From the NCBI GenBank assembly GCA_045546075.1, contig JAZQCF010000017.1, positions 10,254 to 74,253 on the forward strand: DNA of 64,000 bases, given 5' to 3'. Positions 2,074 through 46,385 of the stretch are shown piece after piece. The notes beneath the pieces were generated by a model that saw only the letters and a list, made by a program, of their open reading frames with translations, did not search any database and had not been told where the DNA came from. How positions within the stretch are numbered: position 1 is the stretch's first letter; every line of letters starts with the position of its first letter. Source of the DNA: Candidatus Enterousia sp. GTDB taxonomy: Bacteria; Pseudomonadota; Alphaproteobacteria; Rs-D84. The translations under genes were made by a program, and so were the position numbers.

Positions 2074-5000
2074 ATGATAAAAAAACTGGCCCCCATTATA
2101 TATTGCTTGACACCGTTGTGTGCACTGGCAGACGTGATTACCGAGACCGGGACCCCCGGTGTTCCCACACCGTTTTCCGGTAATTTAACCGTTACAACCG
2201 ATTCGTATCGATTCGTATATGGGTCGGGGATAAACGTAACGGGGGGAATAAATACCGCCGGTGGATTCTATATTGGGCAAGATGCGGGTGCAAATCCAAA
2301 CGTTGGTGCGATTTATGCCGAAACGACAATCAATCCAAATTATGTGGTGACGGCGGCCGATGCGATTACGATTGGCGGGCCGTTACAGGTTAAATCTGGG
2401 TATAACCTGACCATTGGGGGGGCGGGTTCTGCGGTGGATTTGACCGTGGGTAAGGTTGATATTTATGGCGACTTGACGGTTTCAAATGTGGGGGCGGTGT
2501 CGTTTGCTGAATTTACTTCAACGAATGCGGATGCGACAATAAATGGAACATCGTTAACAATAGGAAACGGTAAATTTCAGGCATTGGGGGCCGGGGATAC
2601 AACCGTGAATATTGGAACGGGTGCGTTTAATGTTGCAAACGGCGCGATTGAAAACAAATCGTCGGGCGATATGACAATTACCGCCGGTGCGATTACCGCG
2701 CAAACCATCACGAACGAGGCAAATGAACCCAACAGTCCGGTTGGTGATTTGACGATAAATGCGGCATCTTTGACATTGACCGGCGGGGATGCAACGACAA
2801 ATGCGTCTTTTGTGAACAAGGGTAATTTTACCGGTGTCATTACCGGCGCGACAAATTTGGCGCACGGGTTTGATTTGGGTTCCATGGGCGCAACAAACAA
2901 ATTTAATTTAACAACGGGAACTTTGGTGTTGGGTGACCGTATCGCAGAATTCTATACAAATAATTTGAATTCGTTTGTGTTAAACGTAACCGGTGGCGGA
3001 ATTGATGCCGGGGCAAATGCGATTCGTAATGGAACAACAAATGACAATGCCGGTATGACATTGACCGCCCAGACTGTTGCGGCGGCGGGTATTGAAAATT
3101 TGGCGACGTTGAATATCACATCAAACGGTGCCGTTAATATGACGGGTGATGTGGTGAATTCGGGTGCGTTGGATGTTTCGGGAACTGTGTTTACGTTGGC
3201 AAACATAAATAATTCTGGGGCGGCGACGCTTTCGGGGTCGGGCGCGTTTGGTGCCAATGCAATCAGTAATTTGGCGGGCGCAGAATCTTTGACCGTTTCG
3301 GGAACCGGGGTTACCGCATCGGGTTTGATTTCAAACAATGCCGGAACAATGACGGTCCAGGCGACAAATGGTAATGTTGGCGCATTGGGATTGGTGGCAA
3401 ATGCCGGAACAATGAATGTTTCCGGTGAAACATTGAATATTGGCACATCCGGTATCGATGTCGGCGCAAATGGTTCTTTGAATACAACGGGTGATATTAT
3501 TTCAGGGGGCGAGATATCAGTTGCAAATAACCTGACGGCGGGAAGTGGTGCGGCCGCGGCGGGTGATATGGCCGTGTCTGGCGGTGTTGTCGATATAACC
3601 GTGAACAATAATGAAAAATTGTCCGTTGGTGGCAATGTTACCGCAACCGGGGGTGGCGTTGGAATGAACATAGACGCGCACACAATGGAAATTAACGGCG
3701 GTGTTTCGGCGACCGATTCGGGTAAATTGGCCTTTGGTGTGTCGGGCGGTTCAAATTATGCACTTTCGGTTGAAAATAATTTGTCGGCAACAAATGGCGG
3801 TGAAGTTTATTTATATACCAACAACGCGAGAGTATCCCAGGCAATTACAGAAAATTCCGGTTTGATTTATACAACCGATACAAATATAACCGCGGGTTCG
3901 GTTGTGGTTCAGGGTGGACTGTATTTTGATGGCGCATCGCATACAAACGGTTTTGTCGTCGATTCAGGTAATGCGTTCACGCTGAATGCGGCCCAGTTTA
4001 CATTTAACGGTGGTGGAAATGTTGCAGTCGACAATACATTAAACGTATTGCGTTTTGGCGATGCCCAGAGTTTTGTAAATATGTCGGGGACGTTTACAAA
4101 TGCCGGAACCGTTAACGTTGGCGCAAATGACAGAAGGTTTGGTTCGGTTGGACTTGGAACATTGACCAACAATGGGACGTTTAATGTTTGGACGAATCTG
4201 GTTACCGGTGGAGATATCACGAACAATACAGATGGAATTTTGACCTTGAATTCCACGGGTAATGTAACATTGGCCAATTTGACAAATGATGGTTCGGCGG
4301 ATGTTTCGGGTGCGGCGGTCGCCCTGGGGACGGTTGTGGCGAATTCTGGGAATGCAACGGGCGGGGGACTGCGCGTGAACGGAACCTCTGTGATGGCGAA
4401 TTCGTTAAGCGTTCAATCGGTGGTGGGTGCATTGGATATAAATGCGCCAAGCATCAAGATTACTGGGGCGGTAGATACGAACGGCGGTGTGTTGCACCAA
4501 GGTGCCGGTTCAACCAGTGCGATAAATTTATTGGCGGCCGAATTCACGTTTAATTCTGGTGCGTGGAATATGGATTCTTTCGTTGCGGACGGCGGAATTG
4601 GAACATATAACGTGACGGGCGCAATGAATTTTGGAACAGGTGTTATTGTTGAAAATGGTGCGCGCGTGAACTTTAAGCGCGATAATATTGATGCGCCGTT
4701 ATTTTCCGTCGCGGGCAATTTGGTCCAGAATATGTCTGGCACGGACCAAGATGGCACAGTTAATATGATATCGAACAATTTCACATTACGCGCGAATAAT
4801 GTCAACGTTGGTGGTGATATAAATGTGAATAAATTTACAATCGCGAATTTGAACGCGCCAAACGGTATGAAAATTGACGTTACCGGAAATGTTTCGGGGG
4901 GGCTGGGGATTATGGGCCTGGAATATATGACGGTTGGTGAAAATTATACGTTTGATGGTAACAGCAAACTGTTGGCAATCGCAAATTCATCGTCCACGCA

Positions 5001-6642
5001 CGATTATTGGACCGATGTAGATTTTTCGGGCGCAGAACCGTTGATAAATCCGTTGACCGGTGGCGAGACCGCGTTGATAAGCGTTAATGGTAAAATAATA
5101 AATAACGCAGCCGGATTAGATATGGGCAACACGCCGACAGATTTGGCGAATTCTCAGTTTGGTATCGTATTGACCCAGGCGGTAACGGAATCCAGTGCGT
5201 TATGGTTGGCGCACGCGGAGGCGGGGATTGAAGGGTTGCGTTTCAATCAATTAAGTGTCGGTTTCTGTAATGCCGATGGAACGCATTGTGTAAATTACTT
5301 GGATGCATTTAATACTAATAATGGTGCGGGTGAAAACCTGCCGGTGTATTTGGTAACGGTTGATAACGATTTGTATGTCGTGTTTGATACGCGCTTTGGT
5401 GAACCGATTGGTTTGTTCAAATTACAGCCGGTTGTTGGCGCAACGCCGGGACACACGTTGGGTGAATGGCAATCGGCCGGCGCGTTGGACGATGTGATTG
5501 AGGCCGCATTGGCGAATCTGGGGTACACTTACGAAACGGCGGTTTTGCCGGTGGTGGCAACTTTGTTTAACGGAACGCCATTGGAACGCGTGGACAGCGA
5601 ACTGTATGCGCGTATGTTTGATTATTCCCAGACCGGAAATGGAAAGGTGATTCGCGCCTTCAGCCGTCTGTTCCAGTTGCGCGAAGCGAACCAGATTGCG
5701 GACAGTTTGGCCCTGAACACACATACAAATTTCCGTGATATGGCCGATAGATTTATTGACGAGGCAATTTGGAATCGTAATCGTCGTTTGAATAAACTTT
5801 GGATTGATGGTTCGTATGGTATGTTCACGAACGATTTTGATGATATTCGTGGTGATGGTGACCGTTTCAGCCTTAGTTTCGGTTATGATTGGCAGGCGAA
5901 CAATACCCTGATTTTGGGTTGGATGGTGCATGGGTCATATACGGATGCGAACGTTGTTGATGATATAGATTTGGGTTATGGTAATACGGGACGTATTGCG
6001 GGCCGTATGGAATCGAATATGACAAATTTGTCGGTTGGCGGTGGACTTTATTTCTTGAACACACTGTCGAACAAGATGCGCCTGTATGGGGACGCGATGA
6101 TTGATGTGAATATGATTGATGTCGAACGCAACCAGACATGGGTTGATACGATTAAGGGTGATGCAACATCGTTCGGTGCCGTTGCCGAATTGGGGTTGAT
6201 ACACGATTGGCTGAATCAGTATATTATTGGTAATCTGTATGTGCGTGGTGGATATAACTTTGGTTTTGATATGACCGAAAAGGTTGGGGATGCGGATTAT
6301 ATGAAATTGGAATTTGATGGGTACCCAATTTTGACACCGGGTTATTCGTTGATGGTACAAAAACGTGTATATCCGTCTGCGTGGTTTGAATTCCGCCCGT
6401 ATGCAACGGTTGGTATAGAATATGATTTGTTGGGTTCGCCGGATACGATGCAATATAAATTCGCAATGGCGAATAAATGGACCGATTATAATATAGATGT
6501 TGATGCACTGTGGGCAAATGCGGGTGCGGGTGTGGAATTCCTGTGGGTGAACGGGTTACACATTGGTGCGGGTTATCGGTACCAATATAATGCCGATGTC
6601 CAGATGCACAAAATCCACGCGTCTGTGAAATACCGGTTTTAA
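2074..6642 (+). CDS. autotransporter outer-membrane protein (large beta-helical passenger plus C-terminal beta-barrel)
   Basis: 1522-aa ORF. It has a signal peptide (MIKKLAPIIYCLTPLCALA), a long Gly/Asn/Thr/Ala-rich repetitive passenger, and a C-terminal barrel-like region ending in the aromatic ...SVKYRF. Confidence 0.85.
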   Translation: MIKKLAPIIYCLTPLCALADVITETGTPGVPTPFSGNLTVTTDSYRFVYGSGINVTGGINTAGGFYIGQDAGANPNVGAIYAETTINPNYVVTAADAITIGGPLQVKSGYNLTIGGAGSAVDLTVGKVDIYGDLTVSNVGAVSFAEFTSTNADATINGTSLTIGNGKFQALGAGDTTVNIGTGAFNVANGAIENKSSGDMTITAGAITAQTITNEANEPNSPVGDLTINAASLTLTGGDATTNASFVNKGNFTGVITGATNLAHGFDLGSMGATNKFNLTTGTLVLGDRIAEFYTNNLNSFVLNVTGGGIDAGANAIRNGTTNDNAGMTLTAQTVAAAGIENLATLNITSNGAVNMTGDVVNSGALDVSGTVFTLANINNSGAATLSGSGAFGANAISNLAGAESLTVSGTGVTASGLISNNAGTMTVQATNGNVGALGLVANAGTMNVSGETLNIGTSGIDVGANGSLNTTGDIISGGEISVANNLTAGSGAAAAGDMAVSGGVVDITVNNNEKLSVGGNVTATGGGVGMNIDAHTMEINGGVSATDSGKLAFGVSGGSNYALSVENNLSATNGGEVYLYTNNARVSQAITENSGLIYTTDTNITAGSVVVQGGLYFDGASHTNGFVVDSGNAFTLNAAQFTFNGGGNVAVDNTLNVLRFGDAQSFVNMSGTFTNAGTVNVGANDRRFGSVGLGTLTNNGTFNVWTNLVTGGDITNNTDGILTLNSTGNVTLANLTNDGSADVSGAAVALGTVVANSGNATGGGLRVNGTSVMANSLSVQSVVGALDINAPSIKITGAVDTNGGVLHQGAGSTSAINLLAAEFTFNSGAWNMDSFVADGGIGTYNVTGAMNFGTGVIVENGARVNFKRDNIDAPLFSVAGNLVQNMSGTDQDGTVNMISNNFTLRANNVNVGGDINVNKFTIANLNAPNGMKIDVTGNVSGGLGIMGLEYMTVGENYTFDGNSKLLAIANSSSTHDYWTDVDFSGAEPLINPLTGGETALISVNGKIINNAAGLDMGNTPTDLANSQFGIVLTQAVTESSALWLAHAEAGIEGLRFNQLSVGFCNADGTHCVNYLDAFNTNNGAGENLPVYLVTVDNDLYVVFDTRFGEPIGLFKLQPVVGATPGHTLGEWQSAGALDDVIEAALANLGYTYETAVLPVVATLFNGTPLERVDSELYARMFDYSQTGNGKVIRAFSRLFQLREANQIADSLALNTHTNFRDMADRFIDEAIWNRNRRLNKLWIDGSYGMFTNDFDDIRGDGDRFSLSFGYDWQANNTLILGWMVHGSYTDANVVDDIDLGYGNTGRIAGRMESNMTNLSVGGGLYFLNTLSNKMRLYGDAMIDVNMIDVERNQTWVDTIKGDATSFGAVAELGLIHDWLNQYIIGNLYVRGGYNFGFDMTEKVGDADYMKLEFDGYPILTPGYSLMVQKRVYPSAWFEFRPYATVGIEYDLLGSPDTMQYKFAMANKWTDYNIDVDALWANAGAGVEFLWVNGLHIGAGYRYQYNADVQMHKIHASVKYRF

Positions 6643-6664: not shown

Positions 6665-6690
6665 AACCCGCGGGAAACCGCGGTTTTTTA
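6665..6690 (+). terminator. Rho-independent terminator
   Basis: Hairpin CCCGCGG-GAAA-CCGCGG (6667-6683) flanked by an A-run and TTTTTT; potentially bidirectional. Confidence 0.75.
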
Positions 6691-6703
6691 TATGTTTGTG
6701 GGG

Positions 6704-6838
6704 TGGTCAAAAACGAACGTTTTTGTCCAGTACTTTTTTGATATTTTTCAAATTATAAGAAATGGCGGAAATCCGCCATTTTTAATTGACAAATACTCAT
6801 TTTAGACTGGTCACAAAAAACGTTCCTTTTTTGTTACC
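6704..6838 (+). promoter_or_regulatory. conserved 5' module of the secreted-paralog family, copy 1: two palindromes bracketing about 76 bp
   Basis: The outer palindromes are TGGTCAAAAACG-AA-CGTTTTTGTCCAG (6704-6730) and CTGGTCACAAAAAACG-TT-CCTTTTTTGTTACC (6807-6838). The inner segment carries TTGACA (6786-6791, facing the gene) and a perfect TATAAT on the bottom strand (6752-6757, facing away). Near-identical copies lie at 20096-20236 and 24412-24526. Confidence 0.7.
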
Positions 6839-6844
6839 ATTATA

Positions 6845-7005
6845 GGTGTAAAACAACGCCGTCATCCCGTTGTAAAACGGGATCTGGTGGTTCACGACGA
6901 GACTGACGAGATCCCGCGTTATACCACCCACAAAATTTTTCAAATTTTGCGGGGCCTGGTGTCGCGGGATGACGGAAGAAAGGCGGGATGACGGTGGAAA
7001 AAAAC
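6845..7005. repeat. GC-rich mosaic palindromic repeat (REP/RPE-like) inserted in the 5' leader
   Basis: Contains CGTCATCCCG...CGGGATC, GATCCCGCG...CGCGGGATGACG and GGCGGGATGACGG, plus a CCCACAAAATTTTT-CAAATTTTGCGGGG hairpin (6925-6958). GGGATGACG motifs recur at 9186-9196 and 21030-21040. This block is absent from the equivalent leaders of the paralogs. Confidence 0.6.
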
Positions 7006-7021
7006 AAAAAAGAGGGAAAAT

Positions 7022-7110
7022 ATGAGCAAAACATTATTCATTGGTGCGGTCGCATCAATTATCGCAATCAATTCAGTTTTGGCGGATACAACCGTTACAT
7101 CAAAAACGTT
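7022..7110 (+). pseudogene. 5' fragment (signal peptide only) of a secreted-paralog family gene
   Basis: The first 29 codons (MSKTLFIGAVASIIAINSVLADTTVTSKT) are near-identical in DNA to the 5' end of 23878-24381. Homology stops at the palindrome 7100-7122, and the rest of the 72-aa ORF runs through a terminator into the convergent gene. Confidence 0.6.
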
Positions 7111-7132
7111 CGTTTTTGACCACCCCGTACAT

Positions 7133-7163
7133 ACAAAAAACGCCCGGAAATCGGGCGATTTTT
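7133..7163. terminator. bidirectional Rho-independent terminator
   Basis: AAAAAA-CGCCCGG-AAA-TCGGGCG-ATTTTT, between the gene fragment (+) and the convergent 7197-8855 gene (-). Confidence 0.7.
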
Positions 7164-7196
7164 GTTGGGCAACAGAACAGGGAATCCGTTTTGTTT

Positions 7197-8855
7197 TTAT
7201 TCCAATGTGCCCAGGTGATATGCGGCCCCGCCGGACATAATGTTCATTGAATTCGCGCCGCCATCGCCCAATTCCATTGGCGTATAGCATACCGTTCCAT
7301 TGTGTTTAATATGCAATGCCGGCGTGGTTGGACTGGTGTCAAACAGCGGAAATTCCAACCCAGTGGATGTTTTGATTTTTGTAATCCCCGCACCACAGTC
7401 TTGATAACAAACATCGTTATATATGTGTTCGGTTGGATTTGCCTGGCATACGGCCCGATTATCAACCAGGCTTTCCCCCCAACCGGTTTCGGCGGACATG
7501 CTTCCGCACGGACATTCAGTATATAAATTTGTTTCTTCAAACATAAAGTCAGTGCCATATTCGCCGGGCGATGTTATATTTTCAAAAATGTTTTTTGGTA
7601 CATACCCCGATAGGTTTGAACAACCATAAAACGTCTCCGCGAACATCGCAAATGCACCTTCACCCGATAAATTACCAAATAAATTTTCAGGTATTGAACC
7701 AGTTATACCGCTTAATGCGAAAGTGCCGTTAAACATGTTTTCTGCCGGTGCACCGGAAATCCCACTGAATAAGTTTCCTGGGATTGAGCCGTTCAGTCCA
7801 CTGCAGCCTGAAAAAGTTTCGCTAAACATGTTTTCTGCCGGTGCACCGGAAATCCCGCCGAATAAGTTTCCTGGGATTGAGCCGGTTATACCGGTTGCTG
7901 CGAAAGTGCTTCTAAACATGCCTTTTGCCGGTGCACCGTAAATCCCACTGAATAAGTTTTCCGAAATTGAACCGGTTATACCGGTGTAGGTGAATGTCCT
8001 TGCAAACATAGATTCTGCCGGTGCGCCGGAAATTCCACTGAACAACCCCTCTGGAATTGAACCGGTTAATCCGCTACAATAGTCAAATGTACTTGCAAAC
8101 ATAGATTTTGCCGGTGCGCCGGAAATTCCACTGAACAACCCCTCTGGAATTGAACCGCTTAAGTAACGGCATCCTGAGAATGTACTTGCAAACATAGATT
8201 CTGCCGGTGCACCAGAAATTCCGCTGAACAATCCATCCGGAATTGAACCGTATAGCAGACTATCAGCGAATGTACGGTAAAACATGTTACTAACGGGGGC
8301 ACCAACTATACCAGTAAAAAGTTCCTCAGGAATTGTGAAATCTATGTTCCAATCCCCACAACCCTCAAAAGTAGATATAAAACGTGGTTGTGAAGTCCCT
8401 ATTGTTGGAAATATCGCGCCCAGCGAACCGGATATTGCCTCAATAACATTTGGATTTTCATTAAATCGTATGGTCGAAACATTGGTTGTATTGTATCCCG
8501 TTGCCATTCCGCCAAAGCGAATTTGATCATATACATCATACTGGTATGTGCATGTATATGTTGCTTCAGTTGTATCGGTACGGGTGATGGTTTTTCCGGA
8601 TACGCCGGTGCCGGACAGTGTGCCGCCATCGCCACAATCAACATAAAAAGTTCCCTGGGCGGATATATTGAAATTGAAAACAAATGGGTCGTAATAAAGC
8701 ATAAACCGAATCGCGAACTTCGCCGTTTCGCATTGGGTGCCGTCGCCCAAAACGTCTATTTCGTTTTCGGCACATGCCGCGCGTGCAACCGTTGGCATCA
8801 TATACATTATGCCCATGATAATTGTGATGATGATTGTTTTTAATGGCTTTAACAT
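7197..8855 (-). CDS. secreted protein with about eight 30-aa tandem repeats (LRR-like) and a Cys-rich C-terminal domain
   Basis: Signal peptide MLKPLKTIIITIIMGIMYMMPTVARA; repeats of the form GSIPxxLFSGISGAPAxxMFxxTF(SGC). Start set at the ATG 9 nt after GGGGGG; the ATG at 8864 and the ORF-track start at 8915 are alternatives. The LRR assignment is only pattern-based. Confidence 0.7.
   Translation of the reverse strand: MLKPLKTIIITIIMGIMYMMPTVARAACAENEIDVLGDGTQCETAKFAIRFMLYYDPFVFNFNISAQGTFYVDCGDGGTLSGTGVSGKTITRTDTTEATYTCTYQYDVYDQIRFGGMATGYNTTNVSTIRFNENPNVIEAISGSLGAIFPTIGTSQPRFISTFEGCGDWNIDFTIPEELFTGIVGAPVSNMFYRTFADSLLYGSIPDGLFSGISGAPAESMFASTFSGCRYLSGSIPEGLFSGISGAPAKSMFASTFDYCSGLTGSIPEGLFSGISGAPAESMFARTFTYTGITGSISENLFSGIYGAPAKGMFRSTFAATGITGSIPGNLFGGISGAPAENMFSETFSGCSGLNGSIPGNLFSGISGAPAENMFNGTFALSGITGSIPENLFGNLSGEGAFAMFAETFYGCSNLSGYVPKNIFENITSPGEYGTDFMFEETNLYTECPCGSMSAETGWGESLVDNRAVCQANPTEHIYNDVCYQDCGAGITKIKTSTGLEFPLFDTSPTTPALHIKHNGTVCYTPMELGDGGANSMNIMSGGAAYHLGTLE
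7650..8335 (-). repeat. about 90-bp tandem coding repeats (some units near-identical)
   Basis: The AAACATG/AAACATA landmark recurs at 7731, 7824, 7914, 8004, 8097, 8190 and 8280. Units 8003-8065, 8095-8160 and 8185-8250 are almost identical, as are 7732-7795 and 7822-7885. Confidence 0.85.
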
Positions 8856-9134
8856 TTGGCGCATCCCCCCGTTTGGTTCACGGTTTATGTGCGCACAAAA
8901 AAAATTGGACGGCACATCAACCGGTCCAATGGCGTTTTCCCCAAATAAAAAGCCTTGGAATTAAATTCTTGTGTTTGCTTGGTTCAAAATCTGGTTAGAT
9001 TATATCAAAAATGTGAATTTATGGCAAGGGGAAAATCTTGCCACAGACATCCACACCCCGTCGGGTTACACCCGCCACCCCTCTCTAGAGGGGAACTTTT
9101 TGTCTCGCGCAGGCGCGCGAACATAAAATTAACT

Positions 9135-9213
9135 GTCTGCGACGCAAGTTTACGGCGTTGCCGTAAACTGGGTCCCGCGCTTCCGCGGGATGACGAAAGA
9201 TGAAGGTCTGCGA
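9135..9213. repeat. 63-bp GC-rich hairpin element flanked by 8-bp direct repeats (MITE/REP-like)
   Basis: GTCTGCGA at 9135-9142 and 9206-9213 flanks TTTACGGC-GTT-GCCGTAAA and CCCGCG-CTTC-CGCGGG hairpins followed by ATGACG. More GC hairpins lie just upstream, such as CCCCTC-TCTA-GAGGGG. Confidence 0.5.
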
Positions 9214-13447: not shown

Positions 13448-13496
13448 GCAAATATAACTTGCGTTTATTTTTTTTGTGGTTATAATTTACGGCATT

Positions 13497-13573
13497 CGGG
13501 GCGTAGCTCAGTCTGGTAGAGTGCTTGCTTTGGGAGCAAGATGTCGTAGGTTCGAATCCTGTCGCCCCGACCA
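13497..13573 (+). tRNA. tRNA-Pro (anticodon UGG)
   Basis: Hand-folded cloverleaf: acceptor CGGGGCG/CGCCCCG, anticodon stem CTTGC/GCAAG with loop TTTGGGA, T-loop TTCGAAT, and an encoded CCA. Confidence 0.9.
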
Positions 13574-13585
13574 TTATTTAATAAA

Positions 13586-13612
13586 AATACCACCACAACG
13601 GTGGTATTTTTA
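13586..13612 (+). terminator. Rho-independent terminator after tRNA-Pro
   Basis: TACCACC-ACAAC-GGTGGTA followed by TTTTTATT. Confidence 0.7.
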
Positions 13613-13759
13613 TTAAATGATAATGTTATGTGTGGGCGACAGGATCGGTGCGAACACGAAGTGTGCAGCACCAATACGAGAATACACAATTAGAAAAATC
13701 TTAAAAAATCGACTTTGGAAGATTTTTTTGATTTTTGTCATTGTGTATCGAGGGGGAAA

Positions 13760-16205: not shown

Positions 16206-16805
16206 ATGAAAAAGGCTAGAGATAAAAAACAGAATTTAACCCGGTTGGCGAATCAGGTTTATCGCAATACCGCACCATTGTTGTTGGGGGAATCATTATT
16301 ATTTGTCGCCGTGGCGATACTGTTACTTATACGCCCGGTCGAGATGTTGTCCGCGATAACATTTGTCGTTGGGTTGGGGTTGGTCCTGTTCGGGCTGTAT
16401 CGCGTTAGTATGGTTTTCGTATCAAACCAAGGTTTTACCGCCGGCACATTTGATGTGTTCTTTGGGTTGGTAACATTTGTGTTGGGTGTTGTGTTCTGTG
16501 TATATCCGCATGGGGCGACGGTTGGGATGATATATATATTTGTGGTGCTGTTTATGTTGAATGCGTTGCGGATGTTGTTCTTTTCGATAAATATGGCGCG
16601 TGTTGGTTTTCGTCATTCACGGGCGGACATTGTTGTTTCGATTGTGTTCTTGATTTTATCTGCGTTGTTACTGTTTATGCCGAATTTGGCGATTGGGGTG
16701 TTGGTATGGTTCTTGGCGGCATATATGTTATTGTATGCGGCGGCGGATGTGTATATGTTTATAAAGTTGTTGCGCCTGCGCCGGACGGTGCGCGCGATAA
16801 AATAG
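16206..16805 (+). CDS. polytopic membrane protein (HdeD/DUF308-like)
   Basis: ORF trimmed to the ATG at 16206 after GGGGG. It has six hydrophobic segments with a repeated pattern; the family call is tentative. Confidence 0.55.
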   Translation: MKKARDKKQNLTRLANQVYRNTAPLLLGESLLFVAVAILLLIRPVEMLSAITFVVGLGLVLFGLYRVSMVFVSNQGFTAGTFDVFFGLVTFVLGVVFCVYPHGATVGMIYIFVVLFMLNALRMLFFSINMARVGFRHSRADIVVSIVFLILSALLLFMPNLAIGVLVWFLAAYMLLYAAADVYMFIKLLRLRRTVRAIK

Positions 16806-20095: not shown

Positions 20096-20236
20096 GATAA
20101 CAAAAAAGGAACGTTTTTTGTGACCAGTCTAAAATGAATTTTTGTCAACTTGGGGGGTCGCAAGAATCCGCCATTTCTTATAATTTGAAAAACATCAAAA
20201 AAGCACTGGACAAAAACGTTCGTTTTTTGTGACCAG
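20096..20236 (-). promoter_or_regulatory. conserved 5' module of the secreted-paralog family, copy 2 (same orientation relative to its gene as copy 1)
   Basis: The outer palindromes lie at 20096-20127 and 20206-20236. The inner segment is near-identical to copy 1; TTGACA (20143-20148, minus strand) faces the gene and TATAAT (20179-20184, + strand) faces away. Confidence 0.7.
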
Positions 20237-20765: not shown

Positions 20766-21238
20766 CTGTTTTCTGTTGCCTTGTCGTTGTTTGTTGTGTG
20801 GCCCTAATGCGCCGCAGACATATAAATATATGCCAAATAAAATTTTGCTCGCTATTAGACGCGTGGACATCTAATAAATATGTGTTCGATGAAAATTTGT
20901 GCGTATTAGACTTTATTGGTCATCCCGTTGAAAAAGTTGGTGTGCGGCCAAAGAAATTTCGGTTTGTGCCTTGGTGGCAATTAAATGCCGTGGACTGGTG
21001 GTGTGCCTGCGGATATTTCGTTTTACAACGGGATGACGACTTTGATATGCGGAATGGGTGCATAAGTCCCGAAAATTTGTAAAAACCGCCCTATTCTGGC
21101 CCCGGAATTTTGAAAAAATGGCGGATTTCTGCGGCTTTGCGGCGGTTTTTGTGTCGAAAAAAGAAGATTTTTTGCCCCAACCCGTCCAAAAATGATATTT
21201 TTGCGCGAATTTTTGTTTGGTTTCAATTTATTTTGCGC

Positions 21239-23877: not shown

Positions 23878-24381
23878 TTAATAATTATAGCATTGGCACG
23901 TGCCACCACTGCAATGTGGAGTTTTACACTCTGCGCCAACAATCCCGACACAATCCGCATTTGTTGTGCACTGTTTTGCCGTAACATTAACATCAATCAG
24001 GTTCCATAACAGACAGTTTTCGTCCGTGCCTTGGCCCGGTTCGGCATCCCATTCTACGCACTGCTTATGTGTAACCGTTTTTTCTTGGGATGGTATCGCA
24101 GAAAATGCGGCGCGTGCGGTAATCAGTTTATCGCCGTCATCGTCATAATCAAAATCAACGATGCCCGCATTATAAATCCCGCGTTCACCGATTTGTCCCG
24201 CGGTATCAGTATATGTGACAACGGTTTCGCCGGGTGTATCTTCGTTTGTGCCCGCAACCGGGATTGTTGCCTGGCGCGTGGTATCAACGTACGTTTTTGA
24301 TGTAACGGTTGTATCCGCGAATACTGAATTAATTGCGATTATTGATGCAACCGCACCAATGAATAATGTTTTTTTGCTCAT
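23878..24381 (-). CDS. small secreted protein, paralog family member (167 aa)
   Basis: MSKKTLFIGAVASIIAINSVFADTTVTSKTYVDT..., ENCLLWNL, and a Cys-rich C-terminus. The RBS is AAAGGGGAACATATG. Confidence 0.75.
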   Translation of the reverse strand: MSKKTLFIGAVASIIAINSVFADTTVTSKTYVDTTRQATIPVAGTNEDTPGETVVTYTDTAGQIGERGIYNAGIVDFDYDDDGDKLITARAAFSAIPSQEKTVTHKQCVEWDAEPGQGTDENCLLWNLIDVNVTAKQCTTNADCVGIVGAECKTPHCSGGTCQCYNY

Positions 24382-24411: not shown

Positions 24412-24526
24412 GTAACAAAAACGAACGTTTTTGTCCAGTGCTTTTTTGGAAAAAATTATTCAGTAAAATCAACAACAGTAAAGTCCGCAAAATGGGGGGA
24501 CAAAAACGTTCGTTTTTTTTGACCAC
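24412..24526 (-). promoter_or_regulatory. conserved 5' module of the secreted-paralog family, copy 3, with the inner segment inverted relative to copies 1 and 2
   Basis: The outer arms match those of copies 1 and 2 in gene orientation. The junction CGTTTTTGTCCAGTGCTTTTTT is gene-distal in copies 1 and 2 but gene-proximal here (24422-24448). Confidence 0.65.
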
Positions 24527-39881: not shown

Positions 39882-39968
39882 GGGGATATGGCGGAATGGT
39901 AGACGCTGAGGACTTAAAATCCTTTGGTCATTGCGACCGTGTGGGTTCAAGTCCCACTATCCCCACCA
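39882..39968 (+). tRNA. tRNA-Leu (anticodon UAA)
   Basis: GGGGATATGGCGGAATGGTAGAC...; anticodon loop CTTAAAA; long variable arm; T-loop TTCAAGT; encoded CCA. Confidence 0.88.
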
Positions 39969-40027
39969 CACTTCGCCAAGGCTTCGTGCGGCAGGCAACA
40001 CTTCGCCAAGGCTTCGTGCGGCAGGCC
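39969..40027 (+). repeat. two tandem 30-nt units (CACTTCGCCAAGGCTTCGTGCGGCAGGCAA) abutting the CCA end of tRNA-Leu(UAA)
   Basis: Unit 1 spans 39969-39998 and unit 2 spans 39999-40027. The same unit follows tRNA-Val and the tRNA-Pro 3' fragment at 49808. Confidence 0.85.
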
Positions 40028-40049
40028 GTTAGGGGCGAATAAAATTTTT

Positions 40050-40126
40050 GGATGTGTAGCTCAGTTGGTTAGAGCGCTTCGTTCACATCGAAGAGGTCGT
40101 TGGTTCGAGTCCAATCACATCCACCA
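40050..40126 (+). tRNA. tRNA-Val (anticodon CAC)
   Basis: GGATGTGTAGCTCAGTTGGTTAGAGCGCTTCGTTCACATCGAAGAGGTCGTTGGTTCGAGTCCAATCACATCCACCA. Confidence 0.9.
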
Positions 40127-40185
40127 CACTTCGCCAAGGCTTCGTGTGGCAGGCAACACTTCGCCAAGGCTTCGTGTGGCAAGCC
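40127..40185 (+). repeat. two tandem 30-nt units abutting the CCA end of tRNA-Val
   Basis: CACTTCGCCAAGGCTTCGTGTGGCAGGCAA followed by CACTTCGCCAAGGCTTCGTGTGGCAAGCC. Confidence 0.85.
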
Positions 40186-40262: not shown

Positions 40263-41354
40263 ATGAGAATGTGGGGTGGTATTTTTTATGTTTGGTGTTT
40301 GGTCGTGCCGTGCGTAGTGTTGGCGCGCCCTTTGCCGGGCGTGGTGGTGCCGTTTCCAAATACACCGACAATAAATTATGAAAACGGATATTTGAATGCG
40401 ACCACATTTCCAAAAACGATTGCGGATATAAGTTTTACAGATCGAATGGCACTGGCATCCAGTGGGTACGAGCCTTTTAAGGATTTGCGGGCGTATCGTG
40501 ATTTGGTTGTCGAAGGCGAAGAGCATTTTATTGAACGCCAAATGGCATTGATGGAAATCGAACGCGTGGAAGATTATGAAAATATGGAAATTGATGAATA
40601 CTGTGACAATTATCCTTTGGATACAGAAAATTGCGATGTTTCGCCAGATATGTTGGACGGGATAATCGCGTACGCAGACGATTTTTCATATGGAACCGAA
40701 TATTCGGGGGCGACAATCGGTGGGGGCGCGGTTGTTGCGAATAATAAAACGCGTGGTGGTTCGTGCTATCCCGCGGCGCGCAGCAAAGATTTCAAAAATC
40801 AAATTTTAACAACCGGTCAATATGAACGTGTGTCCCCGGCATTTGAAAAGGCGATGATAACCGTGTTTCGTAAAGAAGGTAAATGTGGATATATTCCCGG
40901 AGACCCGTGTGGTTATACGTGTTATGGTATTGGACAAAATTGTACAGGCAAAACGTTGGGAATAAATGTCCGCAACCTGACCCGGGCGGATGCAGAAAAG
41001 ATATATTATGAACATTTCTGGAAAAAATATAATGTTGGTATGTTGCCAGATGTTATTGCGGGTGATGTTTTTTTGGCAATGATGGCCAGTGGCCCCAAGA
41101 CCGCAATAAGCCAATTTAGAGGATTTTTAGGTTTGCCGAAAAATTATAATTTGGATGAAAATGTTGTGGCCGCGGTTCAAGATTATAATGGTGATATTCA
41201 CAACAGGTGGTTGGATGTGCGCAAAAAATTCCTGGTCCAGGTTGCCGCAAGAAAATACAATAATCGTGTGTTAAAAGGTTGGATGCGCTCAATTCGTTTG
41301 AAACGTGAAAATGGGTGTCACGTTATTCCGGCGACACCCATATACAGACAATAA
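40263..41354 (+). CDS. secreted GH108-like muramidase with a C-terminal peptidoglycan-binding (PG_binding_3-like) domain and a novel N-terminal module
   Basis: The GH108 pattern FEKAMITVFRKEGKCGYIPGDPCGYTCYGIG...LTRADAEKIYYEHFW is present. The N-terminal 80 aa contain FPKTIADISFTDRMALASSGYEPFKDLRAY, which is shared with 43672-45225. Confidence 0.65.
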   Translation: MRMWGGIFYVWCLVVPCVVLARPLPGVVVPFPNTPTINYENGYLNATTFPKTIADISFTDRMALASSGYEPFKDLRAYRDLVVEGEEHFIERQMALMEIERVEDYENMEIDEYCDNYPLDTENCDVSPDMLDGIIAYADDFSYGTEYSGATIGGGAVVANNKTRGGSCYPAARSKDFKNQILTTGQYERVSPAFEKAMITVFRKEGKCGYIPGDPCGYTCYGIGQNCTGKTLGINVRNLTRADAEKIYYEHFWKKYNVGMLPDVIAGDVFLAMMASGPKTAISQFRGFLGLPKNYNLDENVVAAVQDYNGDIHNRWLDVRKKFLVQVAARKYNNRVLKGWMRSIRLKRENGCHVIPATPIYRQ

Positions 41355-41370
41355 GATACTTAAATAATTT

Positions 41371-41688
41371 TTATCGTAATCCCAATGCGCGACAGCACGC
41401 AGATGCCGCGGTTTTCCAATCGGAATATTGCTTTTCTGGGTTACGCAGGTCGCGCCAACCCTGCCATCCGGAACAATTTTTCTTGGTGCCGGTCCCGGTG
41501 CATTTTACATATCGGCGCAATGAACAAGTTTGATTTGATAACTTTCCCAAATCGGTTGTGCATTTCACAACAACGTTTTGATTCTTTGCATCTTCTTTAC
41601 CCAATTCTTTGGAAGACATAACCTGGTATGCGGATGCGGATGCGATTGTTGCAATAACTAATACAAATGCGGTAAAAAATTTTTTCAT
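41371..41688 (-). CDS. small secreted Cys-containing protein (105 aa)
   Basis: Signal peptide MKKFFTAFVLVIATIASASA; six Cys in the mature part. Last gene of the 45730-to-41371 minus-strand cluster. Confidence 0.6.
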   Translation of the reverse strand: MKKFFTAFVLVIATIASASAYQVMSSKELGKEDAKNQNVVVKCTTDLGKLSNQTCSLRRYVKCTGTGTKKNCSGWQGWRDLRNPEKQYSDWKTAASACCRALGLR

Positions 41689-41764
41689 TTTAACCCCCTG
41701 TTCTATTCATTTACATTTTATAAAATTTTTAACAAATACTCAACAGGTTTTTTGTCGGTTGTAT

Positions 41765-43669
41765 TTACTGTGCAGTGGACCAGGGTTCATCGTTCATTAC
41801 CAACCAATACAGTTCTTGGAAATCTGTACCGGGATTGCGAATAATTGGGCGCACGACGTATATATCAACATCGCACGCGTGGCGGCCGGTTTCGTCCTGA
41901 ATCTCGGTCAGGTCTTGCCAGAATTTTTGCGCAAAATCCATCGCTTGCAGGTATGCGGTATCATCATCGGCGACATTCGTCGAATCACCCGCCCACATTA
42001 ACCACATCCCATAATTTACGACATTGTCTTGACCTTCGATAGAATCAGCGGAGAGCAACAACAACGGTTTCATATCGATTCCATTTGTGAATTCGTCTGT
42101 TTCGGTGTCCGCCCAATCATAGAAACCGCCGATAATACCAATAACAAAATTCAATGCTGCCAAATCTTCGCCGACACGTGCAACGCGTCCAATGTTTCGG
42201 CGGGTGGAATGGAATAACCAATCGCGCACGCGTCCAGATGTGGATGCCTGGCGTGCGATTTTTTCTGCGCGGTCCAATGTTTTTGCCCCGCTGTGTGCAG
42301 CCTTGGCCGATTTACCCAGGTTTTTTGCCCCCGTCCATATACGCGTGATAACGTTTCCACTGCGCGCGTTTTTAAGAGTTTTTAATTCCTTGCTGTATTT
42401 AATAACGTCTTTTAACGCGTCGTATTCTTTGACATATTCGGCAACATTTTTATCGGCGCGCGCCATTTCCGCCATAGTTTTTTCGATTTCACCAATATTT
42501 TTACGATTTTGCGCGATGAATTTTTCTATTTTTTCAATATCTTCGACCTTGTCAATTCCTTGACCGGCGCGTCCAACCCGCCACATATTTTGGGACTTTA
42601 ATTTGCGTGCGTTTTCCAGTTGTTTTGCAATTTTTTCATATTTGGCCGAACCCTTGGATGCCTTGGCCAGGGCCTGTTCCAGTTTTTCTATATTGCGGAT
42701 TGATTTTGCCAAATCGTTCATATTATCAATTTCTTTGGTGTATTTTGCGACCTGTAAAGAATGGCGCAGGTATTTTTGAACCGATTCGAATTTAACCAAT
42801 GCCTTTAATGAACTGCGCAGCCTGGATGCGGTGTGTGCCGCGCGTGCGCCCTTAGATACGCCGGATAATACCGCAAAACCGCCATACGACACGACGGTCA
42901 ATGCGATATCAACAACCACCTCGACTGCGGAAATCCATTTCAGGTTTCGGTCGCCGGCAATATAGTAATTATTTTTATCGCCGTCGTGTTTTGCCGTGTG
43001 GTCGTGAATAACATTGTGAACCATAGAATTATTTGTTTTTGCGCCGATGCCGGTTTTTGTGGCGCACCAACCATCCATATTGCGCGGATATAATTTGTCT
43101 ATATTTTGTTCAACCCATTTCATTGAAACCGTATTGTTTTTGTTCGGGCCGACAAATTCGCGCAACGCGCCCGATTGGGTTACCATAACACCATACCACG
43201 CCGGTTCGGTGTTCACCCACGTGGCGTTGGCATCGGTTGATGCAACAGATGGATTTGGGTTGTTTGTGGGCAATTCGGTTTTGGTTGCCAACATAAAGCG
43301 TTGGTCCAATACACGTGGTTGGGTTTCATAATTTATTTCTATCGTGCGGCCATTTGGGAAAGTGTATTTAATTGGCATAAACAGTGTGGCGGTATCATCC
43401 GCATCCGCAATTTCCGGACAGGACAACACGGCACCCAAAGCCTCGGGCGATTGGATGACATCATAAATCCAATCGCGCACGGTTTCACGGTCGTCGTTTT
43501 TATTAACCATAAAAGAATTTTCGCGCAGCGCATTTTCAAATTCCGCCGTGGCACATTCTGTATTTACCGGTCGCGCCGCATTCAGCAATTCCGCCGTTGT
43601 GTTTATATCCCCCGCCGCAAACGCAGTAATTGGAAAGAGAAGAAAAAGCAGAACGGGCTTTAAGAGCAT
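41765..43669 (-). CDS. large secreted/membrane protein with a central coiled-coil region (634 aa, hypothetical)
   Basis: Start moved to the ATG at 43669 (MLLKPVLLFLLFPITAFA), because the ORF-track start at 43684 is a TTG. A hydrophobic segment at ISAVEVVVDIALTVVSYGGFAVL is followed by a Lys/Glu-rich coiled coil. Confidence 0.7.
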   Translation of the reverse strand: MLLKPVLLFLLFPITAFAAGDINTTAELLNAARPVNTECATAEFENALRENSFMVNKNDDRETVRDWIYDVIQSPEALGAVLSCPEIADADDTATLFMPIKYTFPNGRTIEINYETQPRVLDQRFMLATKTELPTNNPNPSVASTDANATWVNTEPAWYGVMVTQSGALREFVGPNKNNTVSMKWVEQNIDKLYPRNMDGWCATKTGIGAKTNNSMVHNVIHDHTAKHDGDKNNYYIAGDRNLKWISAVEVVVDIALTVVSYGGFAVLSGVSKGARAAHTASRLRSSLKALVKFESVQKYLRHSLQVAKYTKEIDNMNDLAKSIRNIEKLEQALAKASKGSAKYEKIAKQLENARKLKSQNMWRVGRAGQGIDKVEDIEKIEKFIAQNRKNIGEIEKTMAEMARADKNVAEYVKEYDALKDVIKYSKELKTLKNARSGNVITRIWTGAKNLGKSAKAAHSGAKTLDRAEKIARQASTSGRVRDWLFHSTRRNIGRVARVGEDLAALNFVIGIIGGFYDWADTETDEFTNGIDMKPLLLLSADSIEGQDNVVNYGMWLMWAGDSTNVADDDTAYLQAMDFAQKFWQDLTEIQDETGRHACDVDIYVVRPIIRNPGTDFQELYWLVMNDEPWSTAQ

Positions 43670-43671
43670 AC

Positions 43672-45225: not shown

Positions 45226-45250
45226 TTCCCCCTATCCTTTATACGCCATA

Positions 45251-45730
45251 TTATAACAAAAATGCGGTTATAATCAAAGACAAAATTCCACCAATTATGA
45301 AAAAGGGTGCAAAAGGAATAAATTTCTGTTTCTTGCGATAGGCCCAGGCCGCACCAAATATACACGCAAAAACCAGTGTGATTGCCAAACCTGTTGGGCC
45401 GCACCACAGGCCGCCCGCCGCAATCAACTTTATGTCGCCCATACCAATCGGCGTGTCGGCACCCGGGGTGCGTCGCGTGATAATGCGGTCAAATATTAAC
45501 CCGATTGTTGCCGCCATAATATATCCAAACGTCATACCGACAACGCCCGATGCAATATCATGTGGCCACGGGAAAAAAGTCACCAAAATTGCCCCAATAA
45601 TTATTAACGGAAATAAATATGCATCTGGTATTATTCGCCGCCGCATATCCGCCATCGCGATTTTATAGCACAATACCAAAGCCATTAAAATCAACAATGC
45701 GAACATCGCATAAAATATGTATAAAAACAT
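45251..45730 (-). CDS. A24-family prepilin peptidase (CpaA-like, 160 aa)
   Basis: ORF trimmed to MFLYIFYAMF... after AAGGGGGAAATA. Polytopic, with Asp motifs RRIIPDAY and GMGDIKLIAAGG. Confidence 0.75.
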   Translation of the reverse strand: MFLYIFYAMFALLILMALVLCYKIAMADMRRRIIPDAYLFPLIIIGAILVTFFPWPHDIASGVVGMTFGYIMAATIGLIFDRIITRRTPGADTPIGMGDIKLIAAGGLWCGPTGLAITLVFACIFGAAWAYRKKQKFIPFAPFFIIGGILSLIITAFLL

Positions 45731-45806
45731 TATTTCCCCCTTGCGTTTCGAATCGGTTTTATGATACACTTATCATATCATATAAAGCGATTAAGGTTTA
45801 GGAAAA

Positions 45807-46385
45807 ATGAGTAAATCTTGGGACAGTAATATTTTGAAGAAACTAAAGGGCCTTATGGGCAAGGGTTTGTCGACCGCGGAAATTGGGAAAAAATTGGGAA
45901 TTTCCAAGAATGCGGTCGTTGGAAAACTGCACCGTATGGGGTGGAATTCGGGCGCAAACGAATCGGCTGGTGCCGATACGAAAAAGGTTGCGACAAAAAA
46001 GACCGCTGCAAAAAAGGTTGTTGCGAACAAGGGCGCGCCGGTGAAAAAAACGTCTGGTGCCGCGGCCAAGGTTGCCCGTCCTGCACCCAAGCCCAAGGAT
46101 GTTAAAAAGACGGCACCGGCAAAAACACAAATCAAGGTTGCCGATGGTGGTGCAAAAAAAACGGCCGGTCGGCCCATGCTGTCGCGCGGAACAAACGTTC
46201 ATCAACGCATTGTTCAGCACGCATTGGAAATGGCGAATTTGAAACCGAATCAGTGTCGGTGGCCGATTGGTGACCCGGATTCTAATGATTTTCATTTCTG
46301 TGGGCAAACTGTGTTCGTGGGCAAACCATATTGTTATGAACACTGTAAACAGGCGTATCAGTTCACGCCGCCAAAGAAAAAATAA
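45807..46385 (+). CDS. gcrA: GcrA cell-cycle regulator
   Basis: The N-terminus W..N.L.KLK.L...GLSTAEIGKKLG.SKNAVVGKLHRMG and the C-terminus CRWPIGDP....FHFCG....GKPYC.EH are characteristic of GcrA. Confidence 0.88.
   Translation: MSKSWDSNILKKLKGLMGKGLSTAEIGKKLGISKNAVVGKLHRMGWNSGANESAGADTKKVATKKTAAKKVVANKGAPVKKTSGAAAKVARPAPKPKDVKKTAPAKTQIKVADGGAKKTAGRPMLSRGTNVHQRIVQHALEMANLKPNQCRWPIGDPDSNDFHFCGQTVFVGKPYCYEHCKQAYQFTPPKKK

Follow-up and report, generated by a model that had tools for sequence, protein, structure and literature searches.

The window analysed here, i.e., the whole 64-kb stretch of DNA, contains two intact members of a family of small secreted proteins (copy B, 19963-19451, and copy C, 24381-23878, both on the minus strand) and, at 7022, an orphaned beginning of a third (copy A). 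As the initial annotation had recognized, this third ORF is a family stump: it shares 29 codons (MSKTLFIGAVASIIAINSVLADTTVTSKT) with the paralogs at 93% (C) and 90% (B) nucleotide identity. Identity to paralog C stops at 7109, within a palindrome (ACGT|T vs ACGT|A), and the ORF runs on in frame to 72 aa across a terminator hairpin; as this out-of-family part reads through a terminator, it is probably not a real protein tail. What survives of this small secreted-protein gene was severed and reoriented at palindromes that resemble the target sites of a Hin-type DNA-flipping enzyme. The features of the locus, together with the palindromes of the two paralogs, are given below.

6665-6690, plus strand: terminator (A-run, GC hairpin, T-run; stem 6668-6683) of the gene for a 1522-aa autotransporter-like protein (2074-6642)
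6700-6733, unstranded: site A1, distal palindrome and left arm, GGGG + TGGTCAAAAACG (6704-6715) + core AA (6716-6717) + CGTTTTTGTCCA (6718-6729) + GTAC
6734-6807, plus strand: distal-to-proximal segment of copy A (palindrome centres 107 bp apart), with a hairpin AAATGGCGGAAATCCGCCATTT and a TTGACA
6808-6838, unstranded: site A2, proximal palindrome, TGGTCACAAAAAACG + core TT (6823-6824) + CCTTTTTTGTTACC, inner part AAACGTTCCTTT
6839-7021, plus strand: long 5' leader with the repeat element CGTCATCCCG...CGGGATGACG (6860-6993) and a Shine-Dalgarno-like GAGGG (7012-7016)
7022-7108, plus strand: the 29 retained codons, a signal peptide and TTVTSKT
7097-7126, unstranded: site A3, hybrid palindrome and right arm, ACATCAAAAACG (coding) + core TT (7109-7110) + CGTTTTTGACCA + CCCC
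7109-7240, plus strand: out-of-family tail of the 72-aa ORF, whose reading frame crosses the terminator hairpin
7133-7163, minus strand: bidirectional terminator (stem 7141-7157) of a repeat-protein gene (8915-7197, minus strand)
20102-20119, unstranded: proximal palindrome of paralog B (minus-strand gene), core TT in gene orientation
20211-20228, unstranded: distal palindrome of paralog B, core AA in gene orientation
24282-24305, minus strand: look-alike site in the coding sequence of paralog C, ACATCAAAAACG-TA-CGTTGATACC, 3 mismatches
24416-24433, unstranded: proximal palindrome of paralog C (minus-strand gene), core TT in gene orientation
24501-24518, unstranded: distal palindrome of paralog C, core AA in gene orientation

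The perfect 16-bp inverted repeat described earlier for this locus is exact in the sequence, its left arm (6700-6715, GGGGTGGTCAAAAACG) being the reverse complement of its right arm (7111-7126, CGTTTTTGACCACCCC) at a spacing of 395 bp, and these are the only two exact copies of the 16-nt sequence in the 64-kb window. Each arm belongs to a palindrome of its own with a 12-2-12 layout, TGGTCAAAAACG-AA-CGTTTTTGTCCA on the left (6704-6729) and ACATCAAAAACG-TT-CGTTTTTGACCA on the right (7097-7122), so that the perfect inverted repeat is really 26 nt long (6700-6725 vs 7101-7126); the full palindrome that had been proposed at the truncation breakpoint is accordingly present as site A3. The 26-nt repeat encloses the promoter region, the leader and the 29 codons of the small secreted-protein gene, and complementarity extends weakly beyond it into the flanking terminators (73% over 63 nt). 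The terminator-like hairpins previously noticed outside each arm are likewise there (6668-6683 and 7141-7157), and both score on both strands. Beyond the arms lie the 3' ends of unrelated convergent genes, and flipping the cassette yields the same dead-end ORF in both orientations. The palindromes themselves are weak as hairpins, with folding energies of -3.3 to -7.2 kcal/mol and z-scores of -0.4 to -3.8, which argues against a structural-hairpin role; a REP or other structural hairpin element was rejected on this folding and on the position of the sites upstream of genes. LexA boxes, attC sites and RAYT/REP elements were ruled out on their layouts, and Xer/dif by its 11-6-11 layout.

Palindromes of the same form (TGGTCAAAAACG, AA or TT, CGTTTTTGWCCA; 26-30 bp, 12+2+12) are found in the window as pairs, two upstream of every family gene, with a further look-alike inside the coding sequence of copy C. 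Their core CAAAAACGWWCGTTTTTG has nine matches in the window at ≤3 mismatches (0.56 expected), and eight of the nine fall in the three family modules, one within the coding sequence of copy C. Within each module type the palindromes keep a constant distance from the gene start, the distal and proximal centres are 85-109 bp apart, and, read in gene orientation, copies A, B and C as well as L031, a locus from a related strain, all have AA as the distal and TT as the proximal core. In the related species the palindromes are spelled in other letters (AAAGGTACCTTT) and are still confined to family modules, both half-sites having shifted together (from CG-WW-CG to GG-TA-CC), and three of the four distal sites there have one degenerate half. 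The proximal site appears to overlap the predicted promoter: the best promoter-like match spans it and does not lie wholly inside the segment. A scan for consensus sigma-70 promoters returned none in modules A or B and only chance-level matches in copy C, one inside the segment and one spanning the proximal site.

The multi-copy family itself consists of small secreted cysteine-rich proteins of uncultured rumen Alphaproteobacteria, in which the N-terminal part is conserved and the cysteine-rich C-terminal part varies. The intact paralogs are scattered singly among housekeeping genes, and the family genes of relatives are likewise single and complete. Pfam gave no matches for the family, the stump, the 572-aa repeat protein or the autotransporter-like protein, a tblastn search of phages with paralog C gave none either, and a search of genome contigs with the same paralog returned solely RUG585, from a different species, at 74% identity. 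The predicted structure is confident only over the C-terminal 70 residues, and a fold search of the PDB with it found no significant match; Rfam recovered only tRNAs and RNase P from the window.

A comparison with related strains, suggested at the outset as a check, bore out the idea that the palindromes are recombination breakpoints, one of them within coding sequence. At the same locus L031 (~98% identical) carries an intact 187-aa gene and the cassette in the opposite orientation, and the window and L031 part company inside the palindrome. The flanks of L031, L032 and L033 are 97.5-98.7% identical to the window, and the three follow it through the terminator and GGGGTGGTCAAAAACGAACGTTTTTG and then continue into a promoter module and the intact 187-aa gene, whereas the window instead enters the antisense of the signal-peptide codons. 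Put differently, the right half of A3 together with CCCC is the outer half of an opposite-strand distal site: this half and all sequence rightward are identical in L031, L032 and L033, where they form the distal outer half of the intact gene. The right-hand terminator (7133-7163) is 100% identical in L031-L033 and L035; the left-hand one (6665-6690) is homologous to the L031 terminator, the alignment stopping at window position 6689. What had been proposed as loss of the C-terminal part behind a constant expression and secretion cassette did occur at the orphan locus. The cassette is 86-94% identical to that of L031 and the flanks 98-100%, so the two cassettes may not be orthologous.

The orphan is also carried by L035 (GCA_018396375.1), with both junctions and with its own SNPs and indels, and the presence of both junctions in an independent assembly indicates that the structure is not an assembly artefact. 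The window and L035 are near-identical from exactly 6700 onwards, the left context being different, and both sites of the orphan are intact in the two strains; A2 differs from its counterpart in L035 by one G-to-C change, and the length of the 5' leader varies among the window, L035 and L031. Within the stump there are four differences from L035, three of them amino-acid changing and one at an otherwise invariant Asn. Constraint on the stump is relaxed and the stump is decaying. Relative to other relatives the orphan region is an indel.

Rearrangement at these sites extends beyond the orphan. The 85-nt segment of copy C (24425-24509, centre to centre) is inverted relative to its ortholog: compared with L001, L007, L010 and L013 it scores 33-37 when reversed and 11-20.5 forward, and a 15-nt exact match, read by eye, exists in reverse only. 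Opposite orientations occur between strains (window and L035 vs L031-L033) and between species (copy C), with none seen inside a single population. The distal-to-proximal segment of copy A has the same orientation as those of copy B, L031 and L035, and no orientation variants were seen among the segments of L031, L032, L033, L035 and copies A and B, nor among 16 contigs from four loci of the related species, which suggests that flipping is rare, biased or extinct.

The layout of the sites is that of crossover sites of small serine recombinases. Those of the Din family (Hin/hix, Gin/gix, Cin/cix, Pin/pix, Min/mix) are 26-bp, 12-2-12 imperfect palindromes cut at an AA core, with an inner AAAC(C/G)-type A-tract, and are used as inverted pairs; in the published table of these sites hixL reads TTCTTGAAAACC AA GGTTTTTGATAA and the mix sites ...AA CGTTTTTATGCC (PMC3241671). 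Site A1 (TGGTCAAAAACG AA CGTTTTTGTCCA) has the same architecture, and A3, B1, C1 and C2 are alike. The half-site TGGTCAAAAACG agrees at 9 of 12 positions with TTATCAAAAACC, the reverse complement of the right half shared by hixL and hixR, and the right halves in the window resemble those of the mix sites (PMC3241671). Partners are in inverted orientation, distal AA facing proximal TT and A1 (AA) facing A3 (TT). An inner core AAASSWWSSTTT is important for Gin activity and required by the Gin catalytic domain (PMC5175349). It has eight matches in the window (0.5 expected), seven of which are the family sites; all seven window sites obey this rule (the inner 12 bp of A1, for example, are AAACGAACGTTT), as do the differently spelled palindromes of the related species. 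The outer triplets are TGG...CCA in the window as against the TTC...GAA consensus of Din sites; palindromes linked to recombinases elsewhere also vary at these outer positions. The repeat consensus of the Bacteroides invertase Mpi, in the form ARACGTTCGTN quoted in PMC8375218, is contained exactly in the palindrome: AAACGTTCGT, found on one strand of A1, A3, B1, C1 and C2, matches its ARACGTTCGT. A literature search for the string ARACGTWCGT returned no match.

An association with recombinase genes was tested in a metagenome scan in which loci were chosen only for an exact match to the palindrome, giving 21 unrelated contigs, none among the returns from Candidatus Enterousia sp. In nine of these 21 loci a gene with Resolvase and HTH_7 domains lies 70-700 bp from the palindrome, and six of the nine have a second site 130-164 bp off with the opposite core. 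The exact window palindrome stands upstream of small serine recombinase genes in L038, L040, L042, L043, L046, L047 and L050. Among control palindromes 1 of 11 adjoined a recombinase gene, which indicates that A-tract palindromes are prone to lie near recombinases and weakens the specificity of the association; a hix-like palindrome used as a positive control had two viral matches only, neither beside a recombinase (0/2).

Based on these observations, we consider, with a probability of roughly 55%, that the palindromes are serine-recombinase sites flanking short invertible segments and that the orphan is a decaying by-product generated through a look-alike site. The crossover enzyme would be a Hin/Gin/Mpi-type small serine recombinase with its gene elsewhere in the genome. 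It would sit as a dimer on each palindrome and cleave the central dinucleotide, and between sites of opposite core the outcome would be inversion. The short invertible segments in front of the family genes would be the primary units. At the orphan locus a distal site may have recombined with a look-alike at codons 26-33 of some paralogs (ACATCAAAAACG-TA-CGTTGATACC). Such an event would have fused the signal-peptide codons with a distal site's outer half, the gene body being lost; left over would be a stump of promoter and signal peptide with an inversion-competent site on either side, which at least two strains have inherited. One inversion is enough for the right junction and leaves the left arm unaccounted for, which calls for a further event or an ancestor with two genes. 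We infer that a recombinase of the organism acts on the palindromes and that flipping regulates expression, and likewise the order of the events at the left arm. As for the coding-sequence site, the half-site that the initial annotation saw in the intact paralog at the junction was borne out by the look-alike in copy C. The half-site is not conserved at the DNA level: A and C have TCAAAAACG, L031 has TCACGTAAC, B has ACACAAAAC and L007 has TCGCGGCAA, and the site is missing at the DNA level from most paralogs. Its resemblance to a crossover site seems accidental.

Paired, symmetric palindromes that overlap a promoter would also suit a dimeric transcription factor, and it is possible, if on balance rather unlikely, that those of the window are operators of one that controls the whole gene family, placed two per promoter and ~8 or 10 helical turns apart for looping, with the orphan and the flip in copy C being recombinase-independent accidents at short inverted repeats (a deletion mediated by microhomology in the 9-nt match CAAAAACGT, or a template switch at quasi-palindromes). 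Such a role agrees with the restriction of the sites to the upstream regions of family genes, the proximal one overlapping the predicted promoter region, and with the joint change of the half-sites between species, as expected for a co-evolving dimeric binding protein. It also agrees with the rarity of rearrangements at the palindromes, there being no orientation variants in the 16 contigs, and with the searches for the enzyme: tblastn (with Hin, gamma-delta resolvase and XerD sequences) and Pfam scans turned up no serine or tyrosine recombinase gene, either in the 64-kb window or across the relatives' loci (518 kb, with much redundancy). However, operators would leave unexplained why 9 of the 21 unrelated loci have a serine recombinase gene beside the exact palindrome, why the AAASSWWSSTTT rule is obeyed in both species despite differing letters, why distal and proximal cores are always opposite, and why three independent breaks (window/L031, window/L035 and copy C/ortholog) all fall at the 26-30 bp sites; moreover, genes for transcription factors lack consistent linkage to the family.

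Two further accounts concern the orphan cassette as a unit, and we regard both as very improbable. One would see in it a programmed swap, with recombination at the in-frame palindrome placing different promoterless C-terminal cassettes behind an unchanging promoter and signal-peptide cassette, as in the Gin/Cin/Min tail-fibre switches, a shufflon or an integron, with the orphan as the empty expression site. The crossover sites of Din systems can lie within coding sequence (Mu G, P1 C, p15B Min), the family has conserved heads and variable cysteine-rich tails, and the orphan has been kept in two strains with both sites intact. However, the swapping of C-terminal parts put forward from the sequence found no counterpart: tblastn with eight family proteins recovered only the three known copies and no promoterless 3' cassette in the window, and none stands beside the family genes in the relatives' loci examined. 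Further, the orphan is bordered on both sides by 3' ends of unrelated genes, most paralogs lack the coding-sequence site at the DNA level, the intact paralogs are scattered singly among housekeeping genes, and the stump is substituted at an invariant residue. That the promoter, leader and signal-peptide codons of the orphan lead into a live recombination site, at which a serine recombinase could insert or exchange promoterless gene bodies, is very doubtful, neither silent cassettes nor alternative junctions having been seen; such bodies would, e.g., be circles excised between coding-sequence and distal sites at other family loci. To the other account, that the 427-bp unit is a small MITE-like non-autonomous element which picked up a promoter with the beginning of a gene and landed between the genes for the autotransporter-like and the repeat protein, we give hardly any credence. 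Its perfect 26-bp terminal inverted repeats, the indel relative to other relatives and the differing left context in the window and L035 would suit an insertion, but the right arm, with its flank, has its ortholog in the distal site of the intact L031 gene and so was not brought in by one. The flanks (ATATGTTTGT and GTACATACAA, themselves weakly inverted) show no target-site duplication, no second whole copy exists in the window, where the arms recur only in family upstream modules, and no transposase was found.

If the palindromes are recombinase sites, their arrangement resembles several known systems without coinciding with any of them. Unlike in Din systems, the window has no invertase gene within or beside the segment and no alternative C-terminal cassettes, the targets are many scattered chromosomal genes as opposed to one locus, and the segments measure 85-109 bp (393 bp in the orphan) as against ~1-4 kb, too short for a Hin-like enhancer of 60-70 bp plus a promoter. 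Closer in logic is Mpi of Bacteroides fragilis and relatives, a remote "master" serine invertase acting on many scattered promoters that drive genes for surface or secreted products (PMC5903667). Both have short invertible promoter segments, putative ones in the case of the window; at 85-109 bp the latter are about half the length of the 183-186 bp invertible promoters of B. intestinalis (PMC8375218) and shorter than the other known invertible promoters that we found, such as the ~200-bp hixC one (PMC2427008). The phylum and the target gene family are different (the window is alphaproteobacterial), each window site is a full palindrome unlike those of Mpi, the best promoter-like match spans the proximal site, and neither the window nor the relatives' loci yielded an Mpi-like gene. 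Resolvases of the Tn3 family and of plasmids bind palindromic sites just upstream of their own gene; unlike such res sites, those of the window are dispersed before cargo genes and not placed beside a recombinase, and the outcomes observed are inversions. For the origin of the orphan the nearest parallel is the use of secondary "quasi" crossover sites by Cin and Gin, reportedly described by Iida and Hiestand-Nauer in the 1980s. Events at quasi sites, in which an invertase occasionally pairs a true site with a look-alike, are inversions or deletions that leave a hybrid-site junction, with the central dinucleotide converted to that of one partner. The coding-sequence core TA likewise became TT in the window; quasi-site events were experimental, with a known enzyme, and the event here is deduced from strain comparison.

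Should the palindromes be only operators, and the recombination accidental, the orphan would be an ordinary pseudogene; should it be an empty expression site, rumen Alphaproteobacteria would possess an integron-like or shufflon-like system for secreted proteins. If the recombinase reading is true, it would explain the near-identical upstream modules at scattered loci and provide a natural case of a recombinase damaging a gene via a look-alike site in its coding sequence. Uncultured rumen Alphaproteobacteria would then control a family of secreted cysteine-rich proteins via short DNA switches served by one serine recombinase, i.e., the logic of the Bacteroides Mpi system in another phylum and with much shorter segments, and the ~30-bp sites could be used to reveal phase variation in rumen metagenomes.

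The cassette at 6700-7126 comprises a promoter region, a leader and a 29-codon stump of a family gene (copy A), two intact paralogs of which (B and C) lie in the window; each copy is preceded by a module with a distal and a proximal palindrome. The initial annotation had bracketed copy A by a perfect 16-bp inverted repeat and placed its truncation in a palindrome within coding sequence, and both claims hold. Positions 6700-6715 (GGGGTGGTCAAAAACG) are the exact reverse complement of 7111-7126, with no further exact copies in the window, and since each arm forms one half of a separate palindrome, the perfect inverted repeat reaches 26 nt, weaker complementarity extending into the terminators on either side. 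The ORF at 7022 has 29 initial codons in common with B and C and diverges at 7109, inside the palindrome.

Family genes and orphan sites in the window
19963-19451, minus strand: paralog B, intact, 170 aa
24381-23878, minus strand: paralog C, intact, 167 aa
6704-6729: left site of the orphan, TGGTCAAAAACG-AA-CGTTTTTGTCCA
7097-7122: right site of the orphan, ACATCAAAAACG-TT-CGTTTTTGACCA

The 5' leader of copy A holds a repeat element (6860-6993) delimited by CGTCATCCCG...CGGGATGACG, which recurs in two more intergenic regions (9186-9195 and 20918-21038); its length varies among the window, L035 (an independent assembly) and L031 (a close strain), and parts of it match sequence between genes in a related species.

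The family proteins are small, with a signal peptide, a conserved head (TVTSKxYVDTTRQATIPAAGTN...) and variable, cysteine-rich tails. No Pfam domain was found in the paralogs, and the structure model, confident only for the C-terminal domain, had no significant match among solved folds. The family has at least 159 relatives, several on one contig; both source-named relatives are labelled uncultured Alphaproteobacteria, sample and assembly names indicate rumen and gut, and no phage match was found. In that related species the genes are single, flanked by housekeeping genes, and each carries a near-identical upstream module of ~170 bp. At the related-species position equivalent to copy B (L001, 13180-13260) the gene is absent, and a 1.2-kb non-coding stretch holds a degraded piece of the module (GTTTTTGACCAC..., and AAATGGCGGATTTC in reverse).

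With up to three mismatches allowed, the palindrome core CAAAAACGWWCGTTTTTG is found nine times in the window (0.56 expected), and eight of these matches fall in the three family modules. Two sites precede every family gene, their centres separated by 85-109 bp, with the central dinucleotide in gene orientation being AA at the distal and TT at the proximal site, and the latter appears to overlap the predicted promoter. The related species has an equal two-site arrangement in other letters (GG-TA-CC vs CG-WW-CG), both halves having changed jointly, and the palindromes are weak as hairpins. Their 12-2-12 layout and AA core are those of Din-family invertase sites, e.g., hixL (TTCTTGAAAACC AA GGTTTTTGATAA) and the mix sites (...AA CGTTTTTATGCC) (PMC3241671), and at their inner 12 bp they match AAASSWWSSTTT, the stretch of the gix core that is reported as important for Gin activity (PMC5175349). 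This pattern occurs eight times in the window against 0.5 expected, seven of these being the palindrome sites, and in the relatives' loci checked it is confined to family modules, except for one conserved coding-sequence match (L031). A hix-like core, AAACCAAGGTTT, inside a DUF308 gene (window 16424-16435, L031 2222-2233) and conserved in both strains, is probably a chance coding-sequence match. The window palindrome also contains AAACGTTCGT, which PMC8375218 quotes as the repeat consensus of promoters under the control of Mpi, the master invertase of Bacteroides that inverts them.

Loci were also drawn from public collections with an exact palindrome match as the sole selection criterion (n = 21). 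A small serine recombinase gene lay 70-700 bp from the palindrome in nine of them (tblastn, gene coordinates), compared with 1 of 11 for control palindromes of like make-up and altered cores; therefore, such a sequence is very often a serine-recombinase site. All six recombinase genes searched against Pfam had a Resolvase domain, three with HTH_7 in addition, and six of the nine linked loci had a second site with the opposite core 130-164 bp away. A perfect 28-bp palindrome, CGGGTCAAAAACGAACGTTTTTGACCCG, occurs on plasmid-like metagenome contigs (L036, L041-L043, L046, L047), which we take from their JGI record names to be termite-gut samples; most have a second site ~164 bp off, both upstream of a resolvase-type gene, and ORFs near the palindrome in L036 and L047 look ParA-like in sequence.

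The comparison of strains is the decisive part for the orphan. In a strain ~98% identical to the window (L031, flanking genes 97.5-98.7% identical), the locus runs from the repeat-protein gene through a terminator, GTATGTAC, a complete distal palindrome, the promoter module, the proximal palindrome, the leader and an intact 187-aa family gene to a terminator and the end of the autotransporter gene; L032 and L033 agree over their extent. The window is identical to these contigs through the terminator and GGGGTGGTCAAAAACGAACGTTTTTG, and then reads the antisense of signal-peptide codons. Compared with L031, the window has the 5' cassette in the opposite orientation, one breakpoint inside the palindrome and ~500 bp less of gene body, which backs the earlier proposal of recombination at palindromes, one of them in coding sequence, as well as the proposed deletion of the C-terminal part. 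The same orphan, both junctions included, is present in the independent assembly GCA_018396375.1 (L035), which differs in a few SNPs and in two indels of the leader; this assembly is near-identical to the window from exactly 6700 rightwards, with only a terminator-like resemblance to the left and then unrelated DNA. The cassette is absent from L034, and both it and the repeat-protein gene from L016-L029.

That neighbouring gene (7197-8915, minus strand) encodes a 572-aa secreted protein of ~31-aa tandem repeats (GSIPEGLFSGISGAPAESMF...) with no Pfam match and homologs of 412-586 aa in L031-L033 and L035; this gene and the family gene make up the 2.6-kb stretch missing from L016-L029. Synteny with these relatives also breaks at ~13450-13750 (L016 13579 onward), after a radical-SAM gene and a tRNA, where they continue with a ketosynthase/ACP cluster and the window and L031 with PHP-ThiF-TatD-hisS-prfA. 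Copies of ACACTTCGCCAAGGCTTCGTG[CT]GG at 39952-40179 and 49791-49830 begin within tRNA gene 3' ends and extend downstream, as tandem pairs at two of three tRNA genes. The region 40263-46442, beside a tRNA gene, may be an island; it holds a GH108 lysozyme-like protein, a type IV prepilin peptidase-like gene, several ORFs without Pfam matches and a 90-nt inverted repeat (40407-40496 vs 44551-44640, 72%).

How the orphan arose can be inferred in part. Codons 26-33 of paralog C read ACATCAAAAACG-TA-CGTTGATACC, a good left and a poor right half-site, and in the orphan's right junction a C-type left half meets, at its central dinucleotide, an outer half taken from an opposite-strand distal site. A recombinase pairing a true distal site with this coding-sequence look-alike would be expected to yield just such a hybrid. 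A single event of this kind leaves the left arm unexplained. Either, in an ancestor, the autotransporter gene and the repeat-protein gene were each followed by a family gene, and a single deletion would have fused this convergent pair, or an inversion would have been followed by a second recombination. The orphan cassette is only 86-94% identical to that of L031, whereas the flanks are 98-100% identical, which favours the two-gene ancestor without proving it.

A second, independent flip is seen at copy C. Against its ortholog (L001) and three related-species paralogs, the 85-nt stretch between its palindromes scores 33-37 in reverse and 11-20.5 forward, and a 15-nt exact match, found by eye, exists in reverse only. 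Exchanging the inner halves of the two sites restores the canonical GTCCAGTRC beside the distal core, matching the prediction for inversion between two cores.

We consider it somewhat probable (roughly 55%) that the window palindromes are serine-recombinase sites. The weaknesses of this reading are that searches of the 64-kb window and of 518 kb of loci from relatives turned up no recombinase gene, that no within-species orientation variants were seen at the short segments, and that paired sites enclose unusually short segments. The same palindromes could also be bound by a dimeric regulator, and operators with accidental recombination are a tentative, less probable alternative. The swapping of tails that the initial annotation had envisaged, i.e., programmed cassette exchange at the in-frame palindrome, is very improbable: nothing was found in its favour, the window holds no promoterless family fragment, and the orphan's neighbours on both sides are 3' ends of unrelated genes. 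Moreover, inverting the orphan's distal site against its hybrid site gives the same dead-end ORF, the stump's frame runs through the terminator hairpin, the coding-sequence half-site is missing at the DNA level in most paralogs, and the L035 stump is altered at an Asn invariant across 50 family members. The orphan is best seen as the fossil of an off-target recombination event, and the system underlying it appears to be a novel form of serine-invertase switch acting at multiple loci.
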